DNA from: Sarea resinae | Taxonomy: Eukaryota | Assembly (NCBI GenBank): GCA_026026165.1 | Contig: JAPEUD010000015.1 | Span: 372,001-413,454, forward strand | DNA length: 41,454 nucleotides | Reading direction: 5' to 3' | Part shown: piece by piece, positions 3,027 to 41,454 of the stretch | How positions within the stretch are numbered: position 1 is the stretch's first letter | Layout of the letters: each line of letters begins with the position of its first letter | Notes under the pieces: generated by a model | Database searches by the model: none | What the model saw: only the letters and a program-made list of their open reading frames with translations | What the model was told of the DNA's origin: nothing | Made by a program: the position numbers and the translations under genes

Positions 3027-3080
<54 letters not shown>

Positions 3081-3190: not shown

Positions 3191-3930
3191 GGTTCGGCGG
3201 CGATGCTACAGACATCGGCCTGCGAGCGTTCCCTCTCTCTCTCGACGTGGACGAAGCTCTCTCCGCGGCCGACGTTGGATGAAGCCAAAGCCGTCCTATT
3301 GACCGCGATTGATCGGGTGCAGGACGAAAAAAGAGGCCAAGGCGTGGGTGAAGAGATGGATTTGCCTGCACCGTACGCGTGGTGGTGTCGCGGACAATGC
3401 AGAGTGCAGTCAGTCGATCGCTTGCTCCATCTCGGCATTGTCGCGCCGATCAGCCGATGATCCCCCTCCCTCCCCCTCGCCAATCCATCATTTAGCGACC
3501 GATGCTCTCTTTCATTCACCATTTGCTCGCCGAATGCTTTCTCTTCCTCGGAGACGAAGAGATCAAGCAAATGCGATAGTGATGGAGGAGAGAGGGGAGA
3601 GGAGAGAGGGGAGAGGAGAGAGGAGAGAGAGGGGAGAAGAGAATCATCATTCCAATTTGGATCCCACGGCTTGCATTTGCTATCAAGACATCTATGGATG
3701 ACCCCAAGGTCGACGGGCTCTATCGTCTACGTTCCGATGATCATGACCTGGAGAAAGTTCTGAATCGTTCCCTCGTTCGTTGATATAAGAAAGAAAAGAT
3801 CCAACTCGATATGTACCCCACGCACGCCAACGCCGCGGCCTCTCTCAGCCAACCCAACAAGGAGCCTCCCTCTCGGCATTCATCCCTCCCCGCCTGCCTT
3901 ATCGAACACTGATACCAACACAGAACCAAA

Positions 3931-5817
3931 CTAATCCCACTGCTTCAAAAATTCCAGTGCACCGTCCAATTCCCTCTCGATCGCGCGCATATGGGCATCA
4001 CTCCTCGGACTAACTCGGATGCGATATGGCATCGGCCTCGTTAGAATGGCACTCGTATATGCATGCTCATCCAGCTCCACGGGCTGCTTGGTCACAGGAT
4101 CCAGCGCCGGCGCGATGTCGAACGCCCACAGCAGCTTCGCCGTGATACGCCACATGTTGCGCTCGGCGAGGTGGATGCCGGGACACATGCGACGGCCGGC
4201 ACCGTAGCCGTAGTGGTCGCGCTTCGCCCAGTCCGGGCCCACGGCGTAGTCGTTGGCGAGTTTGGGATGGTCGAGGAATCGGTCCGGGTTGAATTTCTCG
4301 TGCTCCGGGTAGAGCTTCTCGTTTTGGTGCATGGCGTAGATTCCGATAAAGATGGTCGTGTTTTTGGGGATGAACATGCCTTCGTATTCGTCGTCTGGGA
4401 CACGAAATGTTAGGTCTAGGGCATATATGGCTGGATTCAGTTGCTTACCTTTTGTGACGAGATGAGGAAGGCCGGCGTGGGCGCTGGAGAGAGCGAGATT
4501 TAGAAGGGGTTTCGATATGAAGGCGGAGAAGGATGAAACAGGGGACTCACGTTGGCCGCCATCGCATGCCCTCTTTGACGATAGCATTGACATAAGGTAG
4601 CTTGTCGAAGTCGGAGAACTGCGGCGCTCGGTCCGCGCCACAGACGGCGTCGATCTCCTTGCGCGCCCTGAGCTGGAATTCCGGGTATTTGGCCAGTGCC
4701 AGAATCAGGGTCAACATCTGGTTGGCGGTCGTGTCGGCACCGGCCTCGAGCAGCTCGCCAAACAGATTATTGAAGGCGTGTGGGGACATCGGATACCCAT
4801 TTTTGTTGTACTCGTCCAACTTGGTGTCGATGAGACAGTCGCGCTTGTCGCCCTTGAGCCGGCGCGCGTCGACAATCTCCCGCGCCCGGTCCCATACGTC
4901 ATCCATCGACTGGCGCGTCTTGTAGGCGCGCTTTTTCCATGATCCGGGAAGGTACCAGAGGAAGGGGAATTCCTCGACTGGGGGGTTGGCGCCGGCTTCT
5001 TGGGTCGCGAGCCACTGTCAAGAACAACGAAAGGTAAGTAAACGGTTTTGGTAGGAACTGGAAAGGCGGAAACGGCAACGATGGATGGAGGAGCTAGCTG
5101 TACCTGTTCTAACATATCGTAGACATCTTTGTTCCAGAAAGCATCAAGCGTTTTGGCCCGATGCCCGTAGATGAGGACACCAGCTACTGAGGCCGTGTAG
5201 AGTTTGGCGTAGCTGAAGATGTCCTCGGGATGACGCAATAGGTTGTTCATGAAGACGACGGCCCTGGGAAGGTCAGCCGTGCGTGTTCAGTAGATTCAGC
5301 CAATAAAGCGGCTGCTTACTCGGCCTCTTGAACGTGAAAGTGCTTCTGGTCCAGTTGCATCGGATTGAAGTTGCGAGTCACAATGGATCGCTTGTCCCTC
5401 CATGACGGCCCCTGGTTCTCCAACGTCAAATGATCACCGTGTGTGACAAAATTGGCTACAGCCATCTGTGGTCGATCAGAGTAGATGCTGCCCTTTTTGT
5501 TCAGGAGATCGTTGACCGCCTTTGGGCTGCACAGGACGACGATATTCGTTGGGCCGACCTTGAGCGAGAAAATGTCGCCGTACTGCTTTGACCATTCGGC
5601 AAATCTATGGAAAGATCTTAGTTACAAAAATCGCAAAAATGGTGCATCCTGCTCACTTCTTCCCGAGACCAGTTGTGGGAATCTGATGCGCATTTCCTAT
5701 TATAGGAGCTGTTGGTGGCCCTGGAGGCATCCGGGGATGGCGGTTCCCCATCGTGAACAGTCGAAACCCGGCATAGGCCACGACCACGCCAAGCAAGGCA
5801 TAAATGATAGCAGTCAT
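3931..5817 (-). CDS. Cytochrome P450 monooxygenase (CYP64-like group, which includes aromatic/phenolic hydroxylases), 5 introns
   Basis: N-terminal membrane anchor MTAIIYALLGVVVAYAGF followed by PPGPP..PIIGNAHQIP. I-helix ELLEAGADTT, K-helix KEGMRWRP, PERF-like FNPDRF, heme motif YGYGAGRRMCPGIHLAE. Introns at approx. 5603-5657, 5264-5319, 5015-5103, 4484-4550 and 4396-4448. Confidence 0.95.
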
Positions 5818-9507: not shown

Positions 9508-10089
9508 GCCCATAAACAGCATGCCTCCACACGAAGGTTGTTGCCTGCGAAGGTGGGAATAACTTCAGAGCATATCCAGGTGAGGTAGAAGAGTACTCTT
9601 AGTGGGCTACCGAGTCAGTAGAGAGCACCATGATATGGACACGGTTCGTAACCCAGACTTGAGGTCTGATGTCGACAGCTCAACGGAAATGGTGGTGATG
9701 TTGGTGGAGTAGCTCCAGGTAAGCTACCTTAGGTACTGAGTAGGTACGAAGAGTGCCTACTGCTCGGGGCCGAGCACGTTGGTACCACTACGTAGTTGCA
9801 ACGACGTCAGGCACTTACTCCGGAGGATGTGAAACTAATCTCGGGTTGCAGCCGAGATGGCACGATAATGATCTTTTTTCCCTGCGTCAATCTCTCCTCG
9901 ATCAAATCTCAGTTCATTGCATTGCATTGCAGCGTATTGTATTGCTCTTGGCACCACGCCACGCCCCCCGAACACCTCTACACGCCTACATCTATACAGT
10001 CGAACCCTCGACGGCCACCAAGAAAACATCTTCCTCCTACTGTCTGCCCCTTGCACACGGCCCGAGGACATCCATCAAGACGACCGACA

Positions 10090-11349
10090 ATGGGGTCCGA
10101 GGCCATACGCCGCGAGCTTCAATCCCACCAGGACTTCCTCGAACAGACGCTCGAGGACCACCAAGTCAAGACCGCGCGCGGCCTCGCACAGATCGAGCAT
10201 GGCTTTGACGGGCTGTACCACCAGACGGCCAAGGTGTGGCTCAAGCTCGAATCCGTTACCAAGCGAGCCGACGAGGGCGATGCGAAGATCAGGACGATGG
10301 ACAAGAGGTTTGATGCCGTCGACAAGAGGATCGATCGCATCGACAGGCGACTGGGCGTGATCCACCGCAGACTCGAGGATCTCCATGAGCGGTTTGGCAG
10401 AAGCCAGAGGGAAGCCATGAATGCTTCTCGCTGTCGAGCCTGGGAGCCCATCACACCCGTCGGACGCTACAATACCGATGGCCACTACGTCTATCCTGGC
10501 TTGATCCCTGGCACCGTCCGCCAGTTCTGGCTCCTGAAGTCTCCTCCATACGGTACGCTGGCCGTCTCTCCTCGATGGGCTGTCAATGCTAATGATGTAT
10601 CACGAACAGCGGACGAGTTATTCGAGTTGGCCGAATTCTACCAGATCGAACATTTCCAGGACTGGACATTAGACGACGTCCTCGTCGAGGGCGAGCTCAG
10701 TCCCTTGAGCAAGACCGAGATCCCGAGAACCCTCCGCGAAGCCACATATATGTATCCGTCCTTGGCGCATCGAGCTGTGGCTGGAGCTCTTGGTCTACCA
10801 TACGACGAGATCAAGAGGCAGATGGAGCGATTAGAGGACAACATCCCGCGAAACATACCAAGGGTGGTGACGCCGACTGACCGCACCATCTCCGCCGTGT
10901 GGTCATCGCCGAGGGAGCTGCCCGATAGGACGTCGACGATCCCGGACCGGCCACCAACTTCAACCGAACGCGGGGTCTCTGGCATATGGTCCTCTCCTTC
11001 TCGAGATTCCCCTTCGCGTGCAGTCTCGACTAGGCAATCGAATCGGACGTCAACGGACACTTCGGAGGACGGGCAGTCACTGAAGCCCGGCGGTCAAATT
11101 GCGCAGGTAGCCCACGCCGCCCATCCCATGCTCTCCCTGCACGAAGAACGGGAGCGGCCCCATCCACCAAAGCTCGCCCTCCGCGACGAACACGACCGTA
11201 TCACTCCCGCCAACCTCTCCCTCCACGATTCGCGCGAACGCAATGGGAATGGAAATGCCTTGAGGCGAGTGGGCAGTAACGACACAACCACGACAACCCA
11301 GTCCCGCAGTAAGATGGACTGGATCCAGGCTTTGATGGATCGCAATTAA
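10090..11349 (+). CDS. Coiled-coil protein with a Mug135-C-like domain and disordered Ser/Thr/Arg-rich tail; one probable in-frame intron
   Basis: ATG at 10090. Heptads MDKRFDA-VDKRIDR-IDRRLGV-IHRRLED precede N..W.PI.PV..YP..IP.TV..FW.L..LFELAEFYQI..AVAGALGL. Probable 57-nt intron at 10553-10609 (GTACGC..GCTAAT..ACAG). Confidence 0.7.
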   Translation: MGSEAIRRELQSHQDFLEQTLEDHQVKTARGLAQIEHGFDGLYHQTAKVWLKLESVTKRADEGDAKIRTMDKRFDAVDKRIDRIDRRLGVIHRRLEDLHERFGRSQREAMNASRCRAWEPITPVGRYNTDGHYVYPGLIPGTVRQFWLLKSPPYGTLAVSPRWAVNANDVSRTADELFELAEFYQIEHFQDWTLDDVLVEGELSPLSKTEIPRTLREATYMYPSLAHRAVAGALGLPYDEIKRQMERLEDNIPRNIPRVVTPTDRTISAVWSSPRELPDRTSTIPDRPPTSTERGVSGIWSSPSRDSPSRAVSTRQSNRTSTDTSEDGQSLKPGGQIAQVAHAAHPMLSLHEERERPHPPKLALRDEHDRITPANLSLHDSRERNGNGNALRRVGSNDTTTTTQSRSKMDWIQALMDRN

Positions 11350-12489: not shown

Positions 12490-12820
12490 CCGGTTTGTCC
12501 CGTCCCGTCTCGTCTTCTCTCGTGTGTCCTGTTTCTCTCCTGTCCTATCCTGTCCGATCCTACTACCCTATCTTGTCTTGCCCTGTCTTGTCTTGTCTTG
12601 GCTTGTCTTGTCTTGTCTCATCTCATCTCATCTCATCTCGTCTCGTCTTGTCTAGTCTGATCTGATCTCGTCTCTTGTATCAGCACAGGCAAGCAGACAA
12701 GCAGGTAGGCGGGCTAGTATGTAGGCAAACAGGCGGACAAGCAGGTGGGTGGCTGGTAAATAGGACACGCAGGCTGGTAGATAGGCACGCAGGTACGACA
12801 GAGTGGCAGGTACGTAGGCG
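12490..12820. repeat. Compound simple-repeat tract: (TCTTG)n, (TCTCA)n, (TCTCG)n, followed by degenerate GCAGG/GTAGG repeats
   Basis: Directly visible pentamer runs at 12571-12676 and purine-rich GCAGGT/GGCA-type repeats at 12680-12820, between two convergent genes. Confidence 0.85.
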
Positions 12821-13327
12821 CGCTTATAGAACATGATGGACTCAAAAAAGGTAGGATTGAGATTCTCAGGAGTATATACATCAGCCAGCTTGAGTTCGCT
12901 CATTTAGTCAGCCATTCACACACGTATGCATTCATGCCTCCGACGGCTGTCGTGTTGATGATTGTGATTGTGATTGTCATTATAATTATGTTTTATGTTT
13001 TATGTCTATGCCACTAGAATGCTTAACCCATGCATATGCCAATGCCCGTCGCTTATGCCCATTGCCCATGCCCATTGCCCGTGCCCGAAACCCCGACGCT
13101 AGACTAGAAAGAAAAAAATGCACCGGAAATAACACCGATCCTACCACCAGAGGAAAACTTGTCGGGGACCGGTGATCAGTGGTGCTGGATGCAGAAATGA
13201 AAAGACACGAAAATAGGGCTTTTAAGAAAGGGGACGTGAGTCCGAGTGTCTGTCTGTCGTCGATGCCCACTTCCCTTCCCTGACACGCCTGCTCCCTGCT
13301 TCCCGTCTGTAGTCGAATCACCACCTC

Positions 13328-16126
13328 TCAATGTCCCTCGACCATGTTCTGCCCGTCAGTGTCCTCACAAGCTGCCTCCTCAGGCGAGGACAATGGCCTA
13401 GTCATGCCAAGCGGTGAGCTCTTGTAATCCACCTTCGCCGTGCGCGTTGGTGAGGACGCTTGATCGATATCGTTCATGGCCACGTCTGCGTGCTTTCTCT
13501 TCGTACCCGATTTCGGACTCGGACTCCGAGGACAGGCGTTGGGTGACGCCGGACCAAGGGGTGAAGAGGGACGGGCTGGCGAGGACCCAGCGCGAAAGGG
13601 CGAAGGGAGAAGAACTGGAGAGCCAGGACGGGAAGGGGGAGAGCTGGAACGAGACGGGGCAGACCCAGAATGCACGGGCGAAGAGCGGCCGGACAGAGAG
13701 CCGTGACGTGACGGCGGAGACCCAGAGTGCATAGGCAAAGAGCGATCTGGAGGCGAATCTGGAGGCGATGATGACAGCCTATTCGCGTTGTCCAGAAGAG
13801 CCACCGACTTTGAAAGCGGAGAAGGTGGCTTCATGATTTTGGCGCGGTCGAAGTCAATGACCATGACGCGTTGACGCTCGGCGTTCCAGAGCAGATTCGG
13901 ATCGCGAAGGTCGTTCTGGAAGATACCTGCGTTCTTGAGGTCGCGGATCGAGCGTTTCGTTTCTTCTTGCACTTTCAAGAATGGTGGATCCTCGTCTTTG
14001 CCAATCTGGTCAATCATTTCACCGGCGTAGGACATGAATAGCATGTGGACGATACGGACGCGAATGGCGAGAAAGTAGGGCCAGTTGAGGTCGATGTTGC
14101 CGAGATAGACGGGGATAGCTTCGCCTTGAAGATGGCTGAGGATCTGATAGATCTGGCCTTCGTGCCGAAGGTCGGGGATGAATACGTCGATAGTACCTTT
14201 GCCCACGAAGGTATACCCATGCGAGATTAGAGTAACCTTGAACAAGGCCCCACGAGAGCCTTGAAGCCCCAGCGGCTTGATATTATTGTCCATGTCCTCG
14301 TCGAGCTGCTTCAGGACTAGATTGAGAAATGTCTTGATGTCCAAGGAGTGCTTATCGGCGCATTCATCCTTTTGATGCTCGGAGAAATTGGGGCAAGAGG
14401 GGTCCAGAGGTAAGCCGCGCTCAATCCCCAGTAAACATTTCTGTGTACAATACGAGTACTGCTGTTTCCCTTTTCCCTTGCCGGAATAGCTCTTTGGGTC
14501 CGCGCTTCTGCTCCCTTGGGACGGATTCGAATATGATGGCGGAGCTGGCGGCTGTGAGCCCTTGGGACCCTGCCTCGGCGGCCCGGGCGGAGGCCTAAAC
14601 TGGTCGTCGTTGTTACTTGGATTCCCTGTCATAGGGGCGCAGCTGTTCCGCCCATAGTCCGATGCTCGCCTCCGTTTCCGATCTCGAGCTATACAGGGAG
14701 ATGTCCCCGTTGTAGCGTACTTTGTTTGGTTCCTGGGCTTATATGCTGATGAAGGAGACGTTGCGAGTTCATCTTCGGGTATGCGTCTCAAGACTTCCTC
14801 GTAATCGACGGTGAACGTGCTCAGTCCTTGCATTACGTATCTTCGCTCGTTCTGTTCGTGAATGTCTGCTCTCGATGCCATCTGAGCAAAACTCAAGACT
14901 TGAGCAATCGCCGTGCGCATGATGAAGACACCGGAGACGGTTTCGATCTGCTTCACCTCCTCATTTGGTTCTGCGAGATGGTAATGAACAGTATCAGGAC
15001 TCTTCCAGTCAATCATGAGAAAGACGTATGCCTCGCCTGTGCAGACATAGCCATATTCTAGACCACTTTCGATCATGTAGGAATATGTCTGCGCTATTGC
15101 GGTCGCGACAAGCTTGTCGGCGTTATACTGCAGCTTCGCATCCGTGGTCTCGAAGCCCTCAGGGTTATCAAGTATCTGCTCCCGGATGTTCAAATTTCGC
15201 GTTCCATTTTGGAGCACTGCGCGTAGAGTTTTGTTCGTAAGTTTGTGAGGCGCCTTGTATTCGACAATAAGTAGCAAACGAGCCTCATTGTCCTCGCCAA
15301 TCCACACGGCTATCTGGTCCGCATGCGGAGCTCTGTCCCTATTAGGTTTCTTCTTTTGAACCTTTGCGAGACGATCGTTGACATCCGTAGCTTCGGGGTT
15401 GAGTGTATTATCGTGGTTCTCGAAGGTGATGTCGCCAAAGAATCCCGGAACTTGGCGAGCTCGACACGCAGCTATGATGAGTGAAACGTGAGACTCAACA
15501 GCAAATCGTACGTAGGATTCTAGGTCCTTTTCGCTGCCGATTTTCCTCTGAAGGCAAATCTTTGACAACCCGTCTAACCCTGCCGCTGACATGAACATGC
15601 GCGGAGCGGTTCCTGTTTCCGGACTCAAGACAGCATCGACTTCGTCGAACAGGCGTTGTTGAATTAGAGGAAACTCTTCCCACGGTCTCAAGTAGTTAGG
15701 ACACCACTTGTTCTTCGCGGTGGTGATAGAGCCTTGGGTGGCGCGAGAGAGGTTGGTCTGGATCTGCATCCGAGATGAGAGAATCTTGTGGCACTTCGTT
15801 AGGTACTCCTCGAAGGTGGACTCCTGCAGTTGTAGCTGGAGCTGCTGCTGAGACTGCTCCGCCCGCTGTTGAGATTGCTCCGCCTGCTGTCGGGACTGCT
15901 CCGCCCGCTGTTGGTACTGCTCTGCCCGAATTCGGGCCTCTCGCTCAGCCGCGAGCTCCCTTCGCAACCGAGCCACCTCCGGCGATCCGCCCTCCATGAA
16001 AGGATCTTCCTGTGGCGATCCTTGTACGAAATTTGAGGACGGCCTCGGATTCCCCCGTCCACCTCGCTGACCAGGGCCACCGGACCCAGACCCGAAGCGT
16101 CCACGTTTTGGATCGGGTGACGCCAT
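13328..16126 (-). CDS. Spok-like (spore-killer family) nuclease-kinase protein, 932 aa, intronless
   Basis: Domain order: coiled coil with heptad VNTR; T.EEYL..CH..CP.YLRPW..F region; PD-(D/E)xK nuclease (ADQ D270, EYK 289-291, QTYSYMI..GLEYGYVCTGEA.VFL); Cys/His cluster C560-x3-C-x13-C-x5-H-x8-H; kinase fold (GLQGSRGALFKV, FVGKG, QNDLRDPN D739, IDFD D758). This is the architecture described for Podospora SPOK proteins. Confidence 0.85.
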   Translation of the reverse strand: MASPDPKRGRFGSGSGGPGQRGGRGNPRPSSNFVQGSPQEDPFMEGGSPEVARLRRELAAEREARIRAEQYQQRAEQSRQQAEQSQQRAEQSQQQLQLQLQESTFEEYLTKCHKILSSRMQIQTNLSRATQGSITTAKNKWCPNYLRPWEEFPLIQQRLFDEVDAVLSPETGTAPRMFMSAAGLDGLSKICLQRKIGSEKDLESYVRFAVESHVSLIIAACRARQVPGFFGDITFENHDNTLNPEATDVNDRLAKVQKKKPNRDRAPHADQIAVWIGEDNEARLLLIVEYKAPHKLTNKTLRAVLQNGTRNLNIREQILDNPEGFETTDAKLQYNADKLVATAIAQTYSYMIESGLEYGYVCTGEAYVFLMIDWKSPDTVHYHLAEPNEEVKQIETVSGVFIMRTAIAQVLSFAQMASRADIHEQNERRYVMQGLSTFTVDYEEVLRRIPEDELATSPSSAYKPRNQTKYATTGTSPCIARDRKRRRASDYGRNSCAPMTGNPSNNDDQFRPPPGPPRQGPKGSQPPAPPSYSNPSQGSRSADPKSYSGKGKGKQQYSYCTQKCLLGIERGLPLDPSCPNFSEHQKDECADKHSLDIKTFLNLVLKQLDEDMDNNIKPLGLQGSRGALFKVTLISHGYTFVGKGTIDVFIPDLRHEGQIYQILSHLQGEAIPVYLGNIDLNWPYFLAIRVRIVHMLFMSYAGEMIDQIGKDEDPPFLKVQEETKRSIRDLKNAGIFQNDLRDPNLLWNAERQRVMVIDFDRAKIMKPPSPLSKSVALLDNANRLSSSPPDSPPDRSLPMHSGSPPSRHGSLSGRSSPVHSGSAPSRSSSPPSRPGSPVLLPSPFRAGSSPARPSSPLGPASPNACPRSPSPKSGTKRKHADVAMNDIDQASSPTRTAKVDYKSSPLGMTRPLSSPEEAACEDTDGQNMVEGH
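15845..15928 (-). repeat. 21-bp coding tandem repeat x4 (RAEQYQQ RAEQSRQ QAEQSQQ RAEQSQQ)
   Basis: Units on the + strand: ctgctgagactgctccgcccg / ctgttgagattgctccgcctg / ctgtcgggactgctccgcccg / ctgttggtactgctctgcccg. Confidence 0.95.
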
Positions 16127-17204
16127 GATGACTCGGTGTGGAGGGGAGAGAAGATGGATGTAGAGATGAGGGTGGATTGAGATGATGAGAATAGATGTAG
16201 ACGATGAGGATGAAGTGAAAGAAGGTGCAGTAGAGAAAAGAAGCTGGTAGCTGATCTAGGCCTGATGTTGCTGCTGCAACTGTGGTGATGAGGGAAGGTG
16301 GGACGAGGTGAGAGGTGTGAGGTGTGAGGTGGGAGGTGAGAGTTGTGATGAGGGAAGAGCGAGAATGAAGGCTAAGCGTCGAGAAGATGGCAGGGTCAAA
16401 GAGGGGTGAATGGCCATGAAGTGAGGAAGAAGACAAGAAACCCGAAGGTCGGGTGAATGTCCCCGGATGGGAGTGCTATGGCAGCTCCCATCGTGCGTGA
16501 AGTAGGCAGATTGGCCGCATGGAGAGGCTCAGACGCGTGAAGGAGATGGTGAAGGTGAGGAAGACGCGCAGAGAGGTACCTGACAACACGGCTGGCCAGG
16601 TACTCCTTCACCAGTGAATTGGCCAACTGATACCTCCTCGGTACGAAACCGTCAATAGTACGCGAAGGGTTTGATGAGAAGAGGTACGATTATCAGATCA
16701 ATGCGATTAGATAAGATGATATACTCCGGAGTACTGCTGCGTACGGTACTTCGCTACTTCGTCCTTGATTTTACACAGCAGAGACGGCCGAGCCCAGGCC
16801 CGTCCATGACAACCTAGCCCTGGCATCCCTTGGTCATGCATCCTCATCCATGGATCCATCTTCTCTATGGCATCGAAAGTGGAGCGCTGCAGTAGGGAAG
16901 AAAAATCTTATATTGCGTCGGCCTCGGGACCGCGTGCCCCAGCGTTTTCGGTTAGTTCTTCGGATGATGGATCCATGATCGCTCTCATCCGCGTGGGGTC
17001 GGTCCGTCGGTGTGGGGAAGATACATTGGGGTTTGCGGGGAACCTACCTTAGCTTGGGTTCCTTTCCTTGATAGCTTAGGTGGCGTCCACGTTGGCATCT
17101 ATGCATGTCACTGCTAAATAACACAAGACTGCCTGAATATGCCGATTGCTGCCCTTCATTCGACACCAGCATTCGATTGGACCTGATCAGACGCTGACGC
17201 TGCC

Positions 17205-19446
17205 ATGGTCGTCTTCACCTCGCCCAAGTGGGTGCCGCAATTGCCCCCGATACCTTCGTCCATTCCCCTGAATGAGTTCATGCTCGACGAGACTCATGGC
17301 CGTCATCCCTTCGTCTCCTCGTGTCCGCCTTTTACCTGTGGGCTATCGGGCAAGCAATATTCGGCGGCGCAGGTGCGAGACCGTGTCGAGTTTCTTGCCC
17401 GGGCACTGGCGATCGAATTGGGATGGCATCCGAATCGGGGGACTGAGTGGGACAAAGTTGTCTGCATCTTCACCATCAACACGGTCTGTCGGGCGTTCCG
17501 AGTATGAATCATAGTCTCGAGCTGACGTTGAACGACATCTCTAGATTGATACTCTACCGGTAATGTGGGCAGCCCATCGACTTTCGGGCATCGCCACACC
17601 AGTCAATGCAACCTACCGCACACCGGAGTTGATCCACCAGCTCAAATCGTCGCATGCAAAGGTCATGTTTACGTGCGCCTCATTACTACCCCTCGCCATC
17701 GAGGCAGCCGACGCGGTGGGGCTTCCAAGAAGTCGAATCTTCTTGATTGAGACACCCAAAGAAAGTTGGCCGCAGCTACAGCCACCACTGACGTTTCAGA
17801 CTGTGGACCAATTGATAGCGGAGGGGAAACGAGGACCGATGTTAGAGCGGCAAAAATGGGAAGCTGGAGAGGCAGTCCGGAGGGTGGCATTTCTATGCTT
17901 TTCCAGCGGCACGTCCGGCCTTCCGGTATGATTCTCATCGATCGTCTTGCCTGGGGCATCCTGAGTAGACCAAATCGTTAACAACAAAGTTAGAAAGGGG
18001 TTATGATTTCTCATTACAACGTCATTTCCAATGTCCTCCAGATTCGGACTTACGACTATTCAAGCCGATCACCCGAATATCATGACACCATGCTGGGATT
18101 ACTACCACAGAGTCACATCTACGCATTGATCGTCATCTGCCATACTGGCGCCTATGTTGGCGATAAGGTTGTTGTTCTGCCGTCGTTCAACTTGGACTGG
18201 ATGTTGAACGCCGTTCAAGTGCATCAGATAACAGCACTTTTCATCGTACGTGCCCGTCCGAAAGCAAGCGCTTGTAGCGGCCCGACTTTCACAACCATGC
18301 GCTAAACATGTAAGCTCAGGTACCACCAATCGTCGTTCAACTGGTCAAGAATGCAAAACGTCTTGCCAAATACAACCTGAGTTCGGTCCAAAAGATCTGG
18401 ACAGGCGCTGCTCCTTTAGGCAAGGAGGTTGCAGAGGAGATTTTGCGGCAGCATCCCACATGGAAAGTCTTACAAGGCTATGGTGAGAGATTTCGATACC
18501 TCTAATGGGCTCATAAATGCCTTTTCTTTTCTTACCACGTCTCGCCCCTTTGAGCCGATCTTGTATCCTTGAATCTCTTTTAGGGAGCCTGCTGATTGTC
18601 TGTTTTCACAGGACTCACTGAGACAGCTACGCTGGTCTGTGGAACCAACCCCGAAGATGTGTGGCTGGGCTCTTGCGGGTCTCTTATCCCGGGAATTGAA
18701 GCCAGACTTGTCACTCCAGAGGGCGAAGAAGTGTCGGGGTACGATATTCCAGGCGAATTGCTGGTCCGATCACCGAGCGTAGCGCTGGGCTATCTCGACA
18801 ACAAGACGGCGACCGATGAAACGTTCGACTCTGATGGCTACATGCACACAGGCGACGAGGCCGTCTTTCGGCGGGGGCCTGGTGGCCATGAGCATGTTTT
18901 CATCGTTGATCGAATCAAAGAGCTTATCAAAGTCAAGGTCTGTACCCCGCAGCACACGCTCGTCCGATCGAAGCTTTTTCGTCTATGCGAGACATTCGAC
19001 TCCTCACACAGCCTTGATCCTCTGCCGCTTGTGAATCCTGTACGGCTTCGAGATCCGTAGCTAACAGTCAACACTCATCCCAGGGCCACCAAGTCGCACC
19101 TGCGGAACTTGAGGCGCTTCTCCTCAGTCACCCTTCGGTCGCCGACGCGGCTGTAATCTCCAGTCCCGACGATGCGGCCGGCGAAGTCCCGAAAGCCTTT
19201 GTCGTCAAATCCAGTGACTATTCCGATTCGTCCTCCGGCCCGGGCAAAGATGAATCACCTCAAGAACTCGCCCTGGTGCTGGACAACTTTGTTCGCGAGC
19301 ACACTGCGAGATACAAGTGGCTGAAAGGGGGCATTGAATTTGTTGAAAGCATCCCCAAGAGCCCCAGCGGCAAGATCCTGAGACGGCTCTTGAGGCAGTT
19401 GGACCAGGAGAAGAGGGAGGCGAGGGCGAAAACGGCCAAGCTTTGA
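17205..19446 (+). CDS. 4-coumarate/phenylacetyl-CoA ligase-like AMP-binding enzyme with peroxisomal PTS1 (-AKL), 5 introns
   Basis: Motifs FSSGTSGLP|KGVMISHYN, LPQSHIYAL, TGAAPL, QGY|GLTE, GELLVRSP, HTGD, DRIKELIKVK|GHQVAPAELE and IPKSPSGKILRR. C-terminus is TAKL* (TGA 19444-19446). Introns at approx. 17483-17544, 17926-17993, 18246-18319, 18483-18611 and 18938-19083. Confidence 0.95.
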
Positions 19447-20088
19447 TAGGGGGTCTGAAGGGCTTGCTTCGTTTTCGAAGAGAAGAGAGAATATAAATCG
19501 TGTCAGATTGATGATATTGAAGATGTGGGGTAACTACTCCGGAGTCCCACGGCTTTCCTGGTGCTGCACCAACATTGAAGGCGCCAAGGTGCGAATGACA
19601 ACTTCTGCAGCTGTCGTCCGATCTGGCGAGACGCAAGTCAACCGCCAGCAATCTGTGAACGGGGCTCCCAACGTCCGGCGAGTTCGCCGATAGGGCTCCT
19701 GCGTAACATAGTGCTGACGTAAGCCCGAGTATTAGAGGACATGTTTACGCCGCGTCACTGTATGCATTCTACTGCGCAGGACCTCCGGACGTCGTACTAT
19801 GTAGAGAGCCAACCTACCTTAATTAATCAGCACTCCATAAGCGCTCTCAGGGCTCCTTTCATCGTCCATGCACCTACCAGACCAACACCAACAACAACAA
19901 CAACGACTCCCCGCAGTAAGATGGCCAGTGCTGGGTCCTCTATAAGGCGGGAGAGGCCCGGGTCCGGGCTCTGCGATCGCTGTCCGATCATTTCCCGTTA
20001 TTGGAAAAGCACCTGCCGTTGTATCCCCCAGACCCCAGCATCGCACCGCATCCTCCCTTGACTCTCCCTCAATTCTACACTCAGCATC

Positions 20089-21005
20089 ATGGCTGAAGTA
20101 ACTCACAGTGAGCCGTGACGCTTTACTTCTCTGCCAAACCTACTGACATGGCCATAGCAACCGGAAAGGAGTGGGACAAGGTGGCGCCCGTGTTCTTCGA
20201 CGGCCTGGCCGAGTCGCCGACGGACGCGCCGACCGCGGCCATGATCACCGCCCTCGACAACGCCTACCCTCTCTCCCAAGCCACCACGATCATGGACAAC
20301 GGCTGCGGCACCGGCCCCGGTACGACGATGCTGATCCAGAAATGTGCCTCGATGCTGCCGGCCGGCGGCGTGCGCATCCTCGCCACGGACTTTAGCGCCG
20401 GCATGGTCGAGCAGGTCACCGAACAGCGGATAAACGGACTCAAAGACAACAACAAGTTGTGGGAACAGGTGGAGACCAAGGTGCTGGACGCGCACGACCT
20501 CGCGGGCGTCGAAGACGGCTCCATCAGCCACATGATGGCGGGCTTCGTGTTCTTCATGGTAGCGGATCCGCAGAAGGCGCTCCAGGAAGCCCGGCGCGTG
20601 CTCACGCCCGACAACGGCGGCGGCGTGCTGGCGCAGACCAGCTGGCAGGGCAGCGAGTGGCTGGACCTGCTGGGGCTGGTCAAGGTCGTCGCGCCGCACG
20701 CGCAGCTGCCGCAGATGCCCGAGGCCTGGACGACGACGGCCGGCGTGCGCGAGCAGCTGGAGAAGGCCGGCTTCCGCGATGTCGAGGCGCGCGAGGTGCG
20801 CGCACATCTGGCCTTTGACGACCCCGTCACCACGGTCAACTTCTTCGTGCGCCGGCTGCCGCTGATGGCCAAGGTCCGCGCCGGCTTGACCGCCGACGAG
20901 ATTGACCGTACCTGTGAGCTGATGATTCAGCATCTGCGCGAGAAATACACTCAGCTGCCTGGTCGCATGGTCGGCACGGCCATTCTGGGAGTCGGTCGGA
21001 AGTAG
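20089..21005 (+). CDS. Class I SAM-dependent methyltransferase, 1 intron
   Basis: Motif I IMDNGCGTG, post-I ATDFSAGMV, motif II LDAHDL..DGSISH, then ALQEARRVL. ATG at 20089 plus intron 20108-20157 (GTGAGC..ACTGAC..ATAG) gives MAEVTHTTGKEW. Third codon positions are strongly GC-biased. Confidence 0.9.
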
Positions 21006-21339
21006 TCTATAGATACCCCTCATAAGGTAGAAACCCAAGCATTTCCGTTCCCTGGTCTGGGTCAATTGAGAGATGTCGATATGAAATTGCCTGAGTGCGT
21101 CCCATTGAAAGCTTTGAGATGTCAAATATCACACCACCTGGCGTAGTATGCTATGTAGACCACTAGGTAATGAAACCAGAAGCAAACAAGAAATATATCA
21201 ATGCTGTTAATAGTCTCTTGGTCCATCGGTCCAAACACCCCAAACGGTCCAAACACTCCAAATCCTCCAGTCCAGTCCAGCATCGGCGACCCTGCACAGA
21301 AGTCGGGACTACGGATCGTACATCTATCCCTCTACCTGA

Positions 21340-21860
21340 ACCTCTCGATCTGTCTATCTTATACCCTACAAACCAGCTAAATCTTTGTCTGATCCTTCTA
21401 TCCCTCTTCTAGCTGACTAACTTAGATATCAAACTCTTTTTCTTTCTACCGAGATTCTTCCCTTTTCTCCCTTTATATATATATAAAGAGGACTTTGTGT
21501 CTAAAACATGTAGATATCTAACTATATCTCTCTTCTCTCTTCTCTGTTCTTTGTCCTTAGAGCATATACGAGAATAAGACAGTACAAAATAAAACAATAC
21601 AATACAATAAGAGGTATATAAGAGGTATAAAATATAGTATACACTACACTATTGAAAAACCTACAGACTTAGAGACTACTTGATCAATACGTCTCAAAGG
21701 TAAGGTACTCCCTCTTAGCCTCTTGGCCTCTTAGACCACCTCATACCTTAGAGTACTCTTAGATCTGCAGATAAGTCGAAAGTATAGCAAGACATATAGG
21801 GGATCGAGAGGATGAAGACTATTAGAAAGGACGAGTAGACTATAGTATTAGCAGCACGAG
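21340..21860. mobile_element. Small AT-rich, TpA-rich island; probable RIP-degraded repeat relic of unidentified family
   Basis: Abrupt drop in GC with dense TA/TAG/CTA and few CA/TG dinucleotides relative to the flanking genes. No readable ORF. Boundaries are approximate. Confidence 0.5.
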
Positions 21861-22112
21861 CAATTCCAGTATTATTTACTACATTGAAAAGTGCACGCGC
21901 CTAGTTTGTGATACATGGTCCTGTGTTATTTACTGGATTCACTGCATGTATTCAGACGATGCATTCGACAATGTACGCAGATAATGTATTCAGATAATGC
22001 TTTTGCATTCAGATATCTCCATGTACTCATGACTCGTCAACATAATCAACCGCGATTGAGCTGCGTAAAGAGAAAACAAAAGCTATAAAATGCAAGGGGA
22101 TATATCGTCCTT

Positions 22113-23837
22113 CTAGTGCATAACGCCGACCGGCTTCTTCTCCGCATACTCTCGTGGCGGCAGGAAGACCTTTTTCCATCGGAAAGCGGCCAGATCGCGC
22201 ATGACCTCGACGGCGTTGCGGATGTTCTCCCGCATGATGTCGGCCGTGGGGCGCGAGAACAGCTCGTCGATCTCCTCAAGTGTCTTGTTCTTGGTCTCGG
22301 GCATAAGGAAGAGCTGGTAGAACCAGCCAAGCACGGCGATGCCGCCGTAGAAGCCAAGCGTCAGCCCGATCTTGCTCATCGCCTTCTGCATGCGCGTGAA
22401 GTTGTACGTGACGATGAAGGAGCAGAGGAAGAGGTTGGCGTCCGAGGTCGTCATGCCGTACGACCGCAGATAGGTCGGGTACACCTCGGCGGGAATCACC
22501 CATGTCAGGCACGCGTACGAGCCGAAGAAACCCATGTACAGGATCAGGCCCGTAAAGTAAGTGCCCAGCGCTGCCGGTTGATTGCTGATCGGCACCTCGT
22601 AGCTGATGCCGATGAGCAGCAGTCCGATGAAGAAACCGGGAAGCATGAGGGTGGCCCAGTAGCGACGGCCGAAGCGCTCCATGTAGTAGACGGCGGGGAT
22701 GGTGCCGAGGAAGAGAGAACCGCCGCCGACGAGGGACATGAAGACGGATGTCTTATCGTCGAAACCGACCTGGTGCATGAGGACGGACATGTAGTACATG
22801 ACCGCGTTGACACCGGTGAATTGGCCGAGGAAGACCATGATGTTGGCGTAGACGGCCGCACGGCGCGCACGAGGGTTGGTGATAAAGTCCATCCAGGGGA
22901 AGCGCGAATTGGCACGATGTTCATCGGCATTTTCGGCTTCGACGGACTCCTTCATGATGAAGAATTCGGCCTTGTCCTCGTACGTGGCGAGGCCGCGGAT
23001 GCGTTTCCAGACGGCAAATGCTTCCGCGCTGCGGCCTTTGTGCATGAGGAACCGGGGAGATTCGGGAAGGAATACCATGCCGACCAAGAGGATGGTCGAG
23101 AAGACGAGGGATGATCCTAAGATATATCGCCAATTCCCCTGGACATCGACAAAGATGGCCGCAACAACGTAGCCAAGGACTTCTCCGAGCGCGAGAGCCA
23201 TCTGGTAGAGGGACACGAGATTACCTCGCCGGCTAGACGGGACACTCTCGGCGACATAGACGGGAACAGTGCCACCTTCGAGACCAACCCCAGCACCGAG
23301 GATCAGACGGCCGACCATCATCATACCGAACGTGACCGCTCCTGCTTCGAGGCCCGCGCCGATGGTGTAGAGGATGCAAGAGACGATGATGGCCATGCGG
23401 CGGCCGAGGAACTCGTTGGTGGGCGAGAGCAGAAGGGCACCAGCTACAGCACCGAGAGGCATGCCGCTGTTGACGAGGGAGGATTGGCTGGAGGAAAGGC
23501 CCAGATCTTTTGGTAGGTAGAGGTTCGCACCCGAGATTAGGGACTGATCGAGACCGGAGAGCAGACCGCCCATTGAGGCGAAAGCAACGAGGAGCCATGT
23601 GAAAACCTTGGGATCGGAGAATTTGATCTCGTACGAGTGCCATGGAGTGCTGATTGACTGGAGTTGTTCCTCCATGAGGTTGATCTGGGCGGCCATGAAT
23701 TCTTCATTGAGTTTGATGTTTGCCGAGTCTGCGGTAGGGTCTTCATGGTGCTCGAATTCCGTGTCGATGACCTTCTTCTCAAGATCGCCGTCGATATAGA
23801 CGACGTCCTTTTCGGAGTCTGCCTTGTCGTCCGCCAT
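22113..23837 (-). CDS. MFS sugar porter, Fsy1/Frt1-like (fructose/polyol-H+ symporter family), intronless, 574 aa
   Basis: Sugar-porter motifs GGLLSGLDQSLISGA, EFLGRR, GRLILGAGVG, PVYVAESVP..RG, PESPRFL, QFTGVNAVMYY, ERFGRR, AEVYPTYLRSYG and PETKNKTLEEID. First ATG (MADDK) is at 23837; the ORF-track start is TTG. The subfamily call is from recalled similarity. Confidence 0.92.
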   Translation of the reverse strand: MADDKADSEKDVVYIDGDLEKKVIDTEFEHHEDPTADSANIKLNEEFMAAQINLMEEQLQSISTPWHSYEIKFSDPKVFTWLLVAFASMGGLLSGLDQSLISGANLYLPKDLGLSSSQSSLVNSGMPLGAVAGALLLSPTNEFLGRRMAIIVSCILYTIGAGLEAGAVTFGMMMVGRLILGAGVGLEGGTVPVYVAESVPSSRRGNLVSLYQMALALGEVLGYVVAAIFVDVQGNWRYILGSSLVFSTILLVGMVFLPESPRFLMHKGRSAEAFAVWKRIRGLATYEDKAEFFIMKESVEAENADEHRANSRFPWMDFITNPRARRAAVYANIMVFLGQFTGVNAVMYYMSVLMHQVGFDDKTSVFMSLVGGGSLFLGTIPAVYYMERFGRRYWATLMLPGFFIGLLLIGISYEVPISNQPAALGTYFTGLILYMGFFGSYACLTWVIPAEVYPTYLRSYGMTTSDANLFLCSFIVTYNFTRMQKAMSKIGLTLGFYGGIAVLGWFYQLFLMPETKNKTLEEIDELFSRPTADIMRENIRNAVEVMRDLAAFRWKKVFLPPREYAEKKPVGVMH

Positions 23838-24615
23838 TTGGGTGGATTGGTAATTTGACAATGATGAATGTGCTGGCTCTCAAAGGAGCTTTGGGGAGTC
23901 TTGTGCGACGAGTATGCTGGACACCCCAGAAGTGAGATCTCGTCTGGGGATTTTATACTCCCCGTATCTGGGGTTCTGTGGGGTGAGCACCCCAGTGGAG
24001 TGGAACGATGGGATGCCATGCTTCTCCATGGGCAGCGATCTGTATCGACCGTTCGAAGACCGTCGAGGGCGCAAGGTTCAAGGGCCAGGTCAGGTCGCAC
24101 AACCACGACATCAGTAACAGCATCTTCGGAGAGGCCAATGCCAGTGGGGATGTTGGAGCCGACACCAAAGCTCGGCGATGTGACGCTAAGTGGAGGGATC
24201 CTGGGGGTCAGTCGGGCCGACTCCTCGAGGGCGAAGAGAAAAAGGGCCTTGGAGGCCGGTACATCGTCGGGTCGCCGTCCATCCCTGTCTTGGGGTGGCA
24301 GGAGTCACGAGATGCTCCTCGCTCATGGAAGATGGAAGCGGTCGAGAAGAGGGGTCGCGATATCTGGAGCAAGCAATGGCGTGGTAGGTGGGAGCGATGA
24401 ACGGTCGCCTCGAGGCGAACCTTAATGCGATGACATGACCAATCCGTGACTGAAGATCAAGCTCGAACCTGCGTCGGGCTCCAGGAGAGGGAAGGGATGG
24501 AAAGAAGGAAAAGCACTCAGCGTCTTCGATGTCGCTAGTCGTCCCTGGTGATCCGTGGCCATGCAAGGAAGCGGCGTGGAATACGGTGATTGTCATTATT
24601 AACAGATTGAAGATG

Positions 24616-24655
24616 GCAGCGACTGCAGCGACTGCAGCGACTGCAGCGACTGCAG
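24616..24655. repeat. 9-bp tandem repeat (GCAGCGACT)x4 upstream of the transporter
   Basis: Directly visible perfect units. Confidence 0.9.
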
Positions 24656-26169
24656 GCAATATCGACCGGCTAAAGGTGAACGGAAGGTGGAGACGGGGTC
24701 ACGCTTCGAGAACTTAGTACGGAGGACGCTTGACTTGCTACGGCCAGCCCGGTTAGGGCACAACCGAAACGGATTGCCGGCAGTGGCCATTCGAGGCTAC
24801 TCGAGGATAAATCATTAGCCCCGTCCCCGTCACTATCGTAGCACGGCCGATCCGGTAACGCTTCCTTTTGACTTCAGGGTCTTCAGGGTCATGAAGGTCG
24901 CCCGCAGCTGTCCGATCGATCGCGAAAGACTGATCAAGGAAACGGTATTGGAGATGGGTGCGAGTTCACTGGAATACGATCGATGGGATGATCAAGACAT
25001 TCATGGGCACGACGAATATCGGCTGCATATGGCCCTCGGTTCGAAGATCATTCAAGGGGGGTGAGTCTCGCTGCACAGAGCAACAGCGATTGCAGTGACA
25101 GCCCTACGCACAAGTATGGGAAGCCAAACCCTACGGGAAGCCATGGGACGCCATACGGGAGAAAAGCCCTTTGAGCTGAAAAGTACGAGTTTACGATAGT
25201 AAATTCGACGACGACGAAACGACATTGTCTGGATGGGGCAAGAGCATCTTGCGCTCAACGCATTGACACTTGACTCCGACACAGCTTCCCGAGGGAATGA
25301 GCTCATTTCAGACGTGGCCCTGTGCTTCCGTACGTTTTGTGTCTGTTGTTGATAACCTCCTATCAAGAAATTCCCTTCAGTACCTGATTCTTAACCCAAA
25401 GCGCCACCAGAAGGCCATCCGCCATGAGGGCTGCCATTGGGAGCCGGACGGCTGACGCACCGGACCGGCTACTGTTGGCCGGGGCTGACTCAAATCTAGG
25501 GCCGATGGTGCCCACGACATCACATCTGGCGTCGAGGCGGACTGGGCTACCCTCCTCGAGATTGCCGCTTTCTCTTCCCCAGGGAAGATTCTTCAAGGAC
25601 AAAATCTACACTGCCAGACGAGAAAGACTTTTGAACCTGGCAAGGTGAAGATGAACATGTAGATGAAGACAATATTAACGAAGACCCAGCCCAGATTGGC
25701 CTCCGACATGTCTTCCGTGTCATCCGAGAAGACGGCTTCTTCATCAGACCAATTCTCGACTTTCCAATCCTCTCTCTCTCTGTCTCGAACACCGCGATCC
25801 GCAAGGCTGTCCGCTACTGCTCCCGGCCTGCCGAAGCGCACTCGGAGACTGCCCTTTCCCCATATCCTAGGCTCTTCTCTGATGATTGTCTCATCAATCA
25901 ATACTGTACTATGTATGTCGTGATGCCAATGGTTTCCTTCTCATGTTAAAATATCAGCGTAACCAGCCGAGTCAACACTGGAACGCCCACTACCTCGGTC
26001 TATTTCCCTGGTCAATTGGTAGATCTCCACACCCCACCAATCTAATTTACATACAAGCTCTACTAGTCCCAAAGTACATAGACTCTCGACTATTGACGAT
26101 ATTGACGAAAAGTAGAATCAACAGGAAGCGCTGTGACATATTCCCTTGTCGATGTAGTTTGGGAGCTCA

Positions 26170-27997
26170 TCACCACCTTTTAAAGGATCGTAGCAGAGCG
26201 CCCGGGCTCTTCTGCGAAAGCAGGCACCAAGTCCCTATCGTTGTGACAATGGCGGCGGTGCCGAACCACTTCCACAGGCTCGTCTGCGTCTCCTCGACAA
26301 CTCGCCCAAGATACGACGGCTTGACGGCCCGTCGATCCTTGGCGTCGGTTCCTGAGAGGTCGTAGTCGGCCCAGTTGACCACCGACAGCCGATTCTGATA
26401 TTCGACCACGTTGCCGCACCAGTTGTTCGTGACGACCCCGTCGGCATTCTTGTACCAGCTCTGGCAGTTCTCATGTGCAAACGTGCTCGCGTTCAGTCGA
26501 GCCTGGATCTCCGAATTGTACTCTTCCACGGTCTTTCGCGAAGGCGTGATGGAGAGCGTCCGACCGCGCGTGCGGGCCTGGGCCACGGCCTGCACCATGG
26601 CACCAATGAATCGTGATTGCGCCTCGATCATCAGGATGACGGAATTGTGGCCGAGGTTGGTGTTGGGTCCGTAGAGCATCCCGAAGTTGGGCAGCGATTC
26701 CACCGTCACCCCGAGGTAGGCCTTTGCGCCCCCTTCCCAGATATCCTCAATGCTCCGCCCACCCAGCCCCGTGACTTTCATGGGGTGCATGAAATCGACT
26801 GTGCGAAAGCCCGTGGCCAGCACGATCACATCGAATTCGTATTCCTTGCTGTCGACCTCGACGCCGGTTGGTGTGATGCGTTGAATCGAACTGAACTCAA
26901 GATGAACGTGAGGAAGGTCTAGTGCAGGGTAGTAATCGTCCGAACTGAGGATCCTTTTACATCCAGGGGGATAGTTAGGTGTCAGCTTCTCGATAAGCTC
27001 GGGCTTGTTCTTGAGTTGTGCTGTCATCATGGCCGCAGATATGCCTTTGATCATCACGTTAAAGGGAGAATCCTCGACAACAGCGGCATCGAAGAAGGAT
27101 TCCTTTGCCTCCATCAGCGAGGCTCGATAATTCTTCCGCACCCACGGCACATATCGGTAGATTGCCCGCATGGTTGGCGAGATCGGTTTGTCGCCACGGG
27201 GAACGACCCAGTTGGGCGTCCGGTGGAAGACCGTCAGACTCTTGCAAACCTTTGCAAGCTCCGGCACAATCTGGACGGCACTTGCAGCGTTCCCAACAAT
27301 TGCGACCCTTTTCCCCTCAAGCGGAACGTTCCAGTCCCAGCGCGCAGAATGCATCATCTTGCCCTGGAAAGTATGTAATCCCTCGATGTCGGGATAGTGA
27401 GGTTGGTTCAACTGTCCTACCGCAGATACGAGATAGTCCGACCGCATGGAGTATTTGTCGCCGTATTCCGCCGCTTTTCCTCCGTCGACGGTCACGTCGA
27501 GGTCCCAGACATTGTCTTCCTCGTTCCAGTGAGCCCCTCTGACCGTAGTATCAAAGCGAATGTAGCGATATAGATCCCATTTCTCGGCCACAGAGATCAA
27601 GTACTCTTGCATCTCCTTCTGGCTGGCATACTCGTGTGTCCAGTCAGGATTCGGCTCGAAAGACAGAGAGTACAAATGGCACACGACTACTCGAGCGTTA
27701 GCTGTGACCTGGCTCGAAATGCATCGGAAGAGGAACTAACCGTCGCAACTGCATCCCGGGTAGCGATTATCGTTCCATGTCCCTCCGACCTGGTTGGACT
27801 TTTCAAGGATCACAAAGTCGTGATCTTTGTTTCGGCGCAGCAGATCAATGGCTGCGCAAATGCCTTGTGACTGTCAGTGTGGAATTCGGAAGGCGGGACG
27901 TAGTCTTCATACCGGAATAGCCGGCGCCGACGATGATTGTTGTCGTTCGACTCGATTGACCCTTGCTGGGTGTGCGCTCAGCATCGGAGATGGACAT
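26170..27997 (-). CDS. Flavin-containing Baeyer-Villiger-type monooxygenase with C-terminal hydrophobic anchor, 2 introns
   Basis: Spliced sequence shows IIVGAGYS|GI (FAD Rossmann), GGTWNDNRYPGCSCD, fingerprint FQGKMMHSARW, IVGNAASAVQ (NADPH), LATGF and YGPNTNLGHNS. ATG at 27997. Introns at approx. 27864-27912 and 27688-27740. Confidence 0.93.
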
Positions 27998-39249: not shown

Positions 39250-39338
39250 GGAGCACCCTTTCTATGCGACTCAATCTCGGATCTCTTGCCGTTGCGTTGT
39301 TATCACGGGCTCAAACCTCGCAGGCTGCTCGAGCGAAG

Positions 39339-39520
39339 TTAGGGTTAAGGTTAGGGCTACCTGAACCGCTGTACCGCTGCTACCTACCACCCCTACCTTT
39401 TACCTTCTTTACTGAACCTACCCTACCCTACCCTACCTTACCTTACCTTACCTTACCTACCTACTAACTGACTGACTAACTGACTGACTAACTGACTAAC
39501 TGACTGACTGACCTGACTAT
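39339..39520. repeat. Interstitial telomere-like and helicase-associated short repeats: TTAGGG-TTAAGG-TTAGGG, then (CCCTA/CCTTA/CCTA)n and (ACTG/ACTA)n
   Basis: Directly visible at 39339-39356, 39416-39465 and 39466-39520, immediately upstream of the TLH relic. Confidence 0.9.
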
Positions 39521-39552
39521 AGGTCCTAGGTCCTAGAGGGCACTTACTTGTA

Positions 39553-41433: not shown

Positions 41434-41454
41434 TTAGGGTTAGGGTTAGGGTTA
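41434..41454 (+). repeat. Telomeric repeat (TTAGGG)3+TTA at the window end
   Basis: G-rich strand runs 5'->3' toward the end, the correct polarity for a right chromosome end. It is preceded by TTAAGGG. Only 3.5 units are visible. Confidence 0.85.

Follow-up and report, generated by a model that had tools for sequence, protein, structure and literature searches.

An apparently single-copy, subtelomeric SPOK-family nuclease-kinase gene of Sarea resinae with both putative catalytic centres in place

Near one end of Sarea resinae contig JAPEUD010000015.1 (assembly GCA_026026165.1, positions 372,001 to 413,454; these 41,454 nucleotides are referred to as the window) lies a gene for a predicted nuclease-kinase of the Spok family, here named P0001. 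It consists of one open reading frame (ORF) of 932 codons plus stop on the minus strand (13328..16126, from an ORF call and comparison with homologs), which runs from ATG to stop with no internal stop codon. Coordinates are those of the window, and features of the gene lie on the minus strand unless otherwise given. An earlier note on this DNA had described an uninterrupted 932-amino-acid ORF with nuclease, Cys/His and kinase motifs; the frame was confirmed, and a scripted check found D270, E289-Y-K291, C560-x3-C564-x13-C578-x5-H584-x8-H593, D739 (in NDLRD) and the DFD at 758 each where the note had placed it. Also present are a QxxxY motif at Q346-Y350 and the kinase residues K643, E656 and N744. 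Residues 1-43 (15998..16126) form a Gly/Arg-rich N-terminal extension that is absent from most homologs in the alignment and modelled with a predicted local distance difference test (pLDDT) score below 50. As the homologs begin at a Met aligned with M44 of P0001, these residues may or may not be translated; by start context M1 is the better candidate (A at -3 and G at +4), M44 having T at -3.

In an AlphaFold2 model built with 47 sequences, residues 49-456 and 556-770 are ordered, and residues 1-46, 457-553 and 771-923 are disordered. The first ordered segment opens with a long helix (residues 49-100, 15827..15982, pLDDT 89-97) that the homodimer model described below predicts to form a parallel, in-register coiled-coil dimer. 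The coiled coil, the length of which varies among homologs, is partly encoded by a 21-nt tandem repeat identified by repeat search (15844..15928, no strand assigned; four copies, 84% matches) specifying AEQSQQR-type heptads. The SPOK2_N region follows (residues 105-456, 14759..15814), comprising domain 1 and a PD-(D/E)XK nuclease-like fold, as judged from PF27653 and a model of pLDDT 89. It contains the predicted PD-(D/E)XK catalytic motif, D270...E289-Y-K291 (15254..15319), and, 55 residues past K291, the QxxxY motif Q346-T-Y-S-Y350 (15077..15091). In the model D270 stands just ahead of strand 271-276, E289 ends strand 282-290 and K291 comes right after it; such strand positions of D, E and K are the usual PD-(D/E)XK placement.

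A disordered Pro/Ser/Gly-rich linker (residues 457-553, 14468..14758, pLDDT below 50) leads to the Cys/His cluster (14348..14449) upstream of the kinase and to the small kinase-like domain (residues 556-770, 13817..14461), which was recognized by AlphaFold2, Foldseek and profile comparison and contains K643, E656, D739, N744 and D758. Alignment of its catalytic loop, D739-L-R-D-P-N744 (13895..13912), places Q where the family consensus has H737, and the DFG-equivalent D758-F-D760 (13847..13855) corresponds to a consensus DFE. Residues E289, K291, K643, E656, D739, N744 and D758 are invariant among 46 homologs, and D270, Q346, Y350 and the three Cys and two His of the cluster are at least 90% conserved. 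The remaining 162 residues (771-932, 13328..13816) form a Ser/Pro-rich tail with 15 Ser-Pro (SP) dipeptides, disordered according to AlphaFold2, and tandem repeats occur within its coding DNA at 13617-13670 and 13745-13768. In homologs a conserved L..ISPN.KRKR motif lies within about 10 residues after the kinase; in P0001 a Ser/Pro-rich insertion of about 85 residues precedes the SPN...KRK motif, which stays in frame.

Using Foldseek, only protein kinases were found to match the whole model (CurKC kinase domain, p38, CK2 and Rio2; approximately 155 to 195 aligned columns, E of approximately 1e-5). Comparison of the alignment profile with the PDB likewise returned only kinases (E of 6e-7), and phmmer against the PDB only weak kinase matches (best E, 0.095). 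On these models the C-terminal domain is a small Kdo/APH-like kinase. Residues 100-460 were also modelled alone (88 sequences, pLDDT 89.1) and compared with 48,161 chains using VIA-align. The best match was BpuSI (3s1s; Z 10.0, root mean square deviation 4.0, 160 aligned), followed by DrdV (Z 7.2) and the Vibrio vulnificus HsdR fragment 3h1t (Z 7.0, 125 aligned, 17% identity), and lower rows included SgrAI, NgoMIV, BsaWI, EcoR124I HsdR (2w00, Z 5.8), NucC and a fusellovirus nuclease. By title, no fewer than 8 of the top 15 rows are restriction endonucleases, HsdR or nucleases; DrdV, SgrAI and NucC (two rows) we take to be nucleases. The fragment 3h1t is also the best HHpred match reported for SPOK3 (Vogan et al. 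2019, PMC6660238). By structural comparison, the modelled N-terminal half folds like the nuclease domains of restriction endonucleases.

For residues 44-460, a homodimer model received a score of 0.65, compared with 0.00 for the best of three controls; 21 of 30 proteins solved as one-chain pairs attain this mark, and none of 23 solved as single chains. Such a pass may come from the predictor's memory and is no demonstration of binding. The runs share at least 72% of contacts at pLDDT of 77 or above, and the contacts run in register along residues 50-100, with a second symmetric patch at 179-237. This arrangement agrees with the parallel dimer predicted for SPOK3. Structural matches to restriction nucleases begin inside domain 1 (residues 100-224), and helices 179-216 contribute to the predicted dimer as well. 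Domain 1, to which Vogan et al. 2019 assigned no function (PMC6660238), may thus belong to a single extended unit for nuclease activity and dimerisation.

A homolog search returned 47 proteins, including P0001, with 29 to 42% identity over 44 to 81% of the query (71 to 81% for all but three shorter matches), all from Ascomycota wherever the organism is named; a second search, seeded by the alignment of the first, added no new full-length relatives. When residues 284-680 were used as the query, 709 relatives were identified, the best 120 of which share 38 to 45% identity with P0001. The closest named organisms among these 120 are the lichen-forming fungi Caeruleum heppii, Circinaria calcarea, Xylographa and Lobaria. 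The family PF27653.1 was precomputed for P0001, for all 47 proteins of the homolog search and for all of the best 120 of the 709 relatives. The ESM Atlas names PF27653 as SPOK2_N, the aligned part reaches the Atlas bar for naming, and the Atlas model of P0001 aligns with clusters bearing the name "Spore killer 2 N-terminal domain-containing protein." When 1.84 billion cluster representatives were searched with a profile, 6,435 matched at E<=0.001, 3,207 at E<=1e-10 and 1,634 at E<=1e-30 (the last counted as clusters at 50% identity); the SPOK family is therefore very large. P0001 is almost certainly a member. The Podospora SPOK domain order and the retained nuclease Lys and kinase Asp, also claimed in the earlier note, are backed by the SPOK2_N assignment, the fold and the motif spacing.

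P0001 pairs, in a quick IQ-TREE analysis of 39 proteins, with a sequence from Phylliscum (Lichinomycetes; Shimodaira-Hasegawa-like approximate likelihood ratio test value, 95), a pairing that is unsure because both branches are long. The pair lies inside a starred clade (99) of 18 rows comprising lichen-forming fungi, Leotiomycetes and other sequences. Class labels change 10 times on the tree compared with 24.8 in shuffles; of the three labels that were checked, Phylliscum and Amorphotheca agree and Caeruleum is incertae sedis at NCBI.

Taken as a whole, the data indicate, at a probability of roughly 80%, that P0001 is an intact, apparently single-copy, subtelomeric SPOK nuclease-kinase of the Pezizomycotina with the full architecture and all residues relevant in Podospora in place. 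A number of observations weigh against this reading. P0001 is a gene predicted from DNA sequence. No Podospora proteins appeared in the two homolog searches or among the best 120 of the 709 matches to residues 284-680, and no protein with SPOK3 residue numbering was present among 193 representatives; likeness to SPOK1-4 was accordingly judged by published motif positions and the SPOK3 domain map, not by alignment. A Pfam scan with a model set lacking PF27653 gave just sub-threshold matches to APH, DUF6594 and DUF874. For the nuclease half, the PDB sequence searches (phmmer and profile) found nothing, Foldseek found no match to the model of residues 100-460 at E<=0.001, and a VIA-align Z of approximately 7 is the level of typical best chance matches, with Z below 8 perhaps reflecting a common arrangement, so that only BpuSI stands clearly higher. 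P0001 is also divergent, as its best identity to relatives is 42 to 45% and its end branch in the tree measures 0.89. Of the 108 columns with at least 85% conservation among the other 46 sequences, it matches 97 (0.898; family median, 0.972; lower quartile, 0.90), and the 11 changed columns include C273A (beside D270), W427E, W438F, H737Q (in the catalytic loop) and E760D. With regard to function, four of six motif-intact Fusarium homologs had no effect in yeast (PMC12693581).

The window ends in telomere repeats, (TTAGGG)n on the plus strand (41434..41454), which lie 25.3 kb from the P0001 ORF. The last 2.4 kb before them (39001-41433) is AT-rich (GC content, 0.31 to 0.45) and strongly resembles the product of repeat-induced point mutation (RIP), with a TpA/ApT of 2.07 to 2.77 and a (CpA+TpG)/(ApC+GpT) of 0.75 to 0.32. 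RIP-type mutation has therefore acted in the lineage, and the block is probably a degraded repeat. The P0001 gene carries no RIP signature (0.56 and 1.17 for the same indices), and its base composition resembles that of its neighbors. Among the 92 other stop-to-stop ORFs of at least 110 amino acids in the window, the Pfam scan found no DUF3435 captain or transposase at E<=0.001, and no long direct, inverted or terminal repeats flank P0001 within the window. Thus the earlier note was right about the distance of about 25 kb to a telomere, the lack of RIP damage in the gene and the absence of a Starship captain from the window.

Its view that there is no close second copy is supported by the lack of RIP and by one sequencing sample, probably the source, to whose contigs the evidence is limited. 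In that sample, the only one found to contain the stretch, the contigs over the gene and its flanks have a flat word depth of 348 to 352, and no extra piece at least 80% alike was found on the gene body. The flat depth and the missing extra piece argue weakly for a single copy, in agreement with the absence of RIP, and P0001 looks single copy. Two other organisms from the same sequencing study gave only short low-complexity matches, and no RNA run was listed among those containing the stretch; neither result bears on expression or on whether the gene is missing elsewhere.

For comparison of context and gene structure, 80 metagenome loci encoding relatives at 28 to 41% identity were used. At 64 of them the relative is a single uninterrupted ORF of at least 650 amino acids (the remaining 16 are interrupted or cut by contig ends), and intronless genes are therefore the family norm. 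A remark on false introns in a 2025 Genetics paper (PMC12693581) agrees with this. The earlier note had called P0001 intronless; this is consistent with the 64 single-ORF relatives and is best regarded as a prediction from the open frame. None of the 14 neighboring ORFs in the window recurs in the flanks of the 80 loci. The flank genes of the relatives range from housekeeping genes to NOD-like receptors (NLRs) of the NACHT/WD40 kind, ankyrin and patatin proteins and transposons. No DUF3435 captain was found beside relatives among the 96 flank ORFs scanned (124 deduplicated ORFs of at least 250 amino acids, less 28 that were the homologs' own or overlapping ORFs). Two loci contain two family members within about 6 kb (L067:6181-15220 and L070:9905-15878), with a NACHT-domain ORF between them in L067, and at L041:803-5173, as at L043 and L048, an NWD-type NLR (NACHT_N, NACHT and WD40) lies approximately 4.5 kb upstream of the Spok homolog.

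The other genes in the window encode a Zn2Cys6 transcription factor, a P450, a BTB protein, a DUF6540 protein, a 517-amino-acid ORF product, an AMP-binding enzyme, a methyltransferase, an MFS sugar transporter, an FMO-like oxidoreductase and a GH76 enzyme. A 1.08-kb intergenic region (16127..17204, no strand assigned) is shared between P0001 and the divergent AMP-binding gene and presumably holds the promoter and 5' untranslated region. The subtelomeric genes at 1800-5300 and 17200-27700 (Zn2Cys6 factor, P450, AMP-binding enzyme, methyltransferase, MFS transporter and FMO-like oxidoreductase) resemble a small secondary-metabolism neighborhood. Within the minus-strand Zn2Cys6 ORF, a (TTG)n microsatellite of approximately 100 nt (3014-3114) would read as poly-Gln. 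The 517-amino-acid frame (9796-11346, plus strand) has no Pfam match at E<=1e-5 and lies 2 kb downstream of the 3' end of P0001. Dense short tandem repeats with periods of 5 to 40 occupy 12538-13086, just downstream of the P0001 stop, and an isolated AT-rich island (21001-22000; GC content, 0.398; TpA/ApT, 1.12) separates the methyltransferase and MFS transporter genes.

If P0001 behaves as its homologs do, it would dimerise in parallel through the coiled coil, its nuclease domain (D270/E289/K291) could damage DNA, and its kinase domain (K643/D739/D758) would neutralise the toxicity of the nuclease in cis as well as in trans. P0001 would then be a self-contained toxin-antidote in one gene. Experimental work on relatives provides the background to this proposal. 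SPOK1 with its kinase Asp mutated is toxic and DNA damaging in E. coli and yeast (Urquhart and Gardiner 2022). When D-to-A mutants of six motif-intact Fusarium homologs were expressed in yeast, two were toxic, FuSpok1 and FuSpok2, both of which belong to a recently expanded multi-copy set (PMC12693581). Given the four inert homologs, motif conservation is a weak predictor of Spok activity. We therefore regard toxin-antidote activity of P0001 as possible but somewhat doubtful, and a role as a meiotic driver in nature as unlikely, because the gene, in the window and the probable source sample, shows no marks of expansion, polymorphism or association with mobile elements and is unusually diverged. 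The architecture and key residues behind the Spok-like driver proposed in the earlier note stand; the toxin-antidote and meiotic driver role found no support, in view of the inert Fusarium homologs, the size of the family and the opinion of Vogan et al. 2019 that single-copy homologs probably do not drive (PMC6660238).

The most probable of the rival accounts, to which we give a little less than an even chance, is that P0001 is a resident, non-driving member of the family. It would be either a nuclease-kinase with a cellular or conflict role or a one-time toxin-antidote that has lost its killing but not its open frame. The 1,634 family clusters, the inert majority of the tested Fusarium homologs, the apparent single copy, the neighbor-like base composition and the divergent pairing with an ordinary AMP-binding gene all favor it, as does the match to conserved columns below the family median, and the clustering of class labels on the tree fits long residence in lineages. 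Against it stands the retention of every catalytic residue of the two domains across 932 codons, an argument for ongoing selection on both activities. The literature drawn on here also attributes a non-selfish function to no member of the family.

An active single-gene spore killer, in which, in crosses heterozygous for its presence, spores lacking the gene would be killed by nuclease activity carried over from the ascus and carriers would be protected by the kinase, appears improbable. In its favor are the two intact catalytic centres, a coiled-coil repeat like the one in the driving Podospora Spoks, a site that is subtelomeric and non-syntenic with the 80 related loci, and the precedent of Podospora Spok2, which drives as a single copy (PMC6660238). 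However, neither the window nor the probable source sample gives any sign of presence/absence polymorphism, copy expansion or association with a transposon or Starship, and the long branch and the 11 changed conserved columns also speak against it. Only a minority of the tested Fusarium homologs were toxic, and Vogan et al. 2019 regard single-copy clade I homologs as probably not driving (PMC6660238).

No better placed is a vegetative addiction module, with post-segregational killing during mitotic growth or after hyphal fusion stabilising the carrying chromosome or chromosome end, as proposed for the Fusarium spoks. Spok toxicity and rescue do operate in vegetative cells (PMC6660238), a model of this kind exists for the FuSpoks (PMC12693581), and a spok carried by a Starship is reported in a 2026 preprint to limit the loss of a dispensable chromosome via killing that needs hyphal fusion. 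The position 25 kb from a telomere, amid dispensable-looking metabolic genes, would suit such a role. On the other side, nothing marks the 413-kb contig as accessory, no Starship is present in the window and the activity of the protein is only predicted. The weakest explanation, a chance open frame or recently dead pseudogene, could draw on a Ser/Pro-rich tail open in several frames and on the 43 N-terminal residues without counterpart in most homologs, and is rendered very improbable by 932 codons without a stop, the conserved columns matched, a confidently modelled fold (pLDDT 89) and a C-terminal SPN..KRK motif in frame past the insertion.

The analysis supports one more intact homolog in a very large family, a divergent gene of an already known kind. 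To our knowledge, no meiotic driver has been described in lichen-forming fungi, and a search of the library covered here found no paper treating Spok homologs of these fungi. It would be a long shot to propose that, in a lineage with lichen-forming fungi as its nearest named relatives, P0001 works as a single-protein toxin-antidote driver, its lineage-specific Ser/Pro-rich insertion (15 SP sites) directly behind the kinase domain perhaps acting as an intrinsic substrate for phosphorylation by which the antidote is timed or tuned. Were P0001 active, it would carry tested Spok toxin-antidote function well outside Podospora and Fusarium, to a protein that shares only about 30 to 45% identity with its closest database relatives, and would help show which family features besides the catalytic residues decide activity. 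As it stands, P0001 is one of thousands of intact homologs. Rather than counting as a discovery of its own, it is of practical value as a divergent test case for the assay in yeast or E. coli.

Among known systems, P0001 most resembles Podospora SPOK1-4 (Spok1 of P. comata and Spok2, Spok3 and Spok4 of P. anserina), with which it shares the order of parts from coiled coil to kinase, a single uninterrupted ORF and the catalytic Lys and Asp. The anatomy of SPOK3 comprises a coiled coil at the N terminus, corresponding to a variable nucleotide repeat, domain 1, a PD-(D/E)XK region spanning 219-240 (K240), QxxxY at 294-298, a C-x3-C-x13-C-x5-H-x7-H cluster and a kinase with catalytic D667; killing is abolished in K240A, and D667A is toxic unless wild type is present (PMC6660238). 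The D-to-K spacing is 21 in both proteins (D219..K240 in SPOK3), the distance from K to QxxxY is 54 in SPOK3 and 55 in P0001, and the Cys/His clusters are identical save for the final gap, x7 in SPOK3 and x8 in P0001. The boundaries between order and disorder in P0001 correspond to the SPOK3 domain map shifted by 51 residues, and its 21-nt repeat corresponds to the variable one at the beginning of Podospora Spok coding sequences. P0001 differs in being approximately 150 to 200 residues longer (932 amino acids, compared with a 2,334-nt coding alignment, or about 778 codons), with the extra Gly/Arg-rich N-terminal extension and the tail insertion, and in having QND for the family HxD and DFD for DFE. 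Unlike the Podospora genes, it lies outside any Spok block or Starship, as judged by the window scan.

The Fusarium Spok homologs (IPR052396), FuSpok1 and FuSpok2 of Fusarium poae among them, belong to the same family and share the architecture of P0001, and the same conserved residues served to judge them as candidates. The toxic FuSpoks come from recently expanded multi-copy clades in accessory regions or Starships, whereas P0001 looks single copy, with a best identity of 45%. In apparent copy number and intact motifs it resembles clade I homologs such as NECHADRAFT_82228 (Fs_82228), which are reported to be single copy per genome with intact motifs. In the 39-protein tree it falls among lichen-forming and Leotiomycete sequences, not Sordariomycete ones. 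The nuclease domains of HsdR (type I) and BpuSI (type IIG) have, like the modelled P0001 domain, a PD-(D/E)XK fold with D...ExK on adjacent strands; they have no detectable sequence similarity to P0001, which has no methyltransferase or translocase and is fused to a kinase instead. If active, P0001 would act like the wtf drivers of Schizosaccharomyces pombe, in which one gene is both poison and antidote (a comparison made in PMC6660238). The two are not homologous, and wtf genes achieve this with two transcripts, whereas SPOK genes do so with one protein that has two enzymatic domains.

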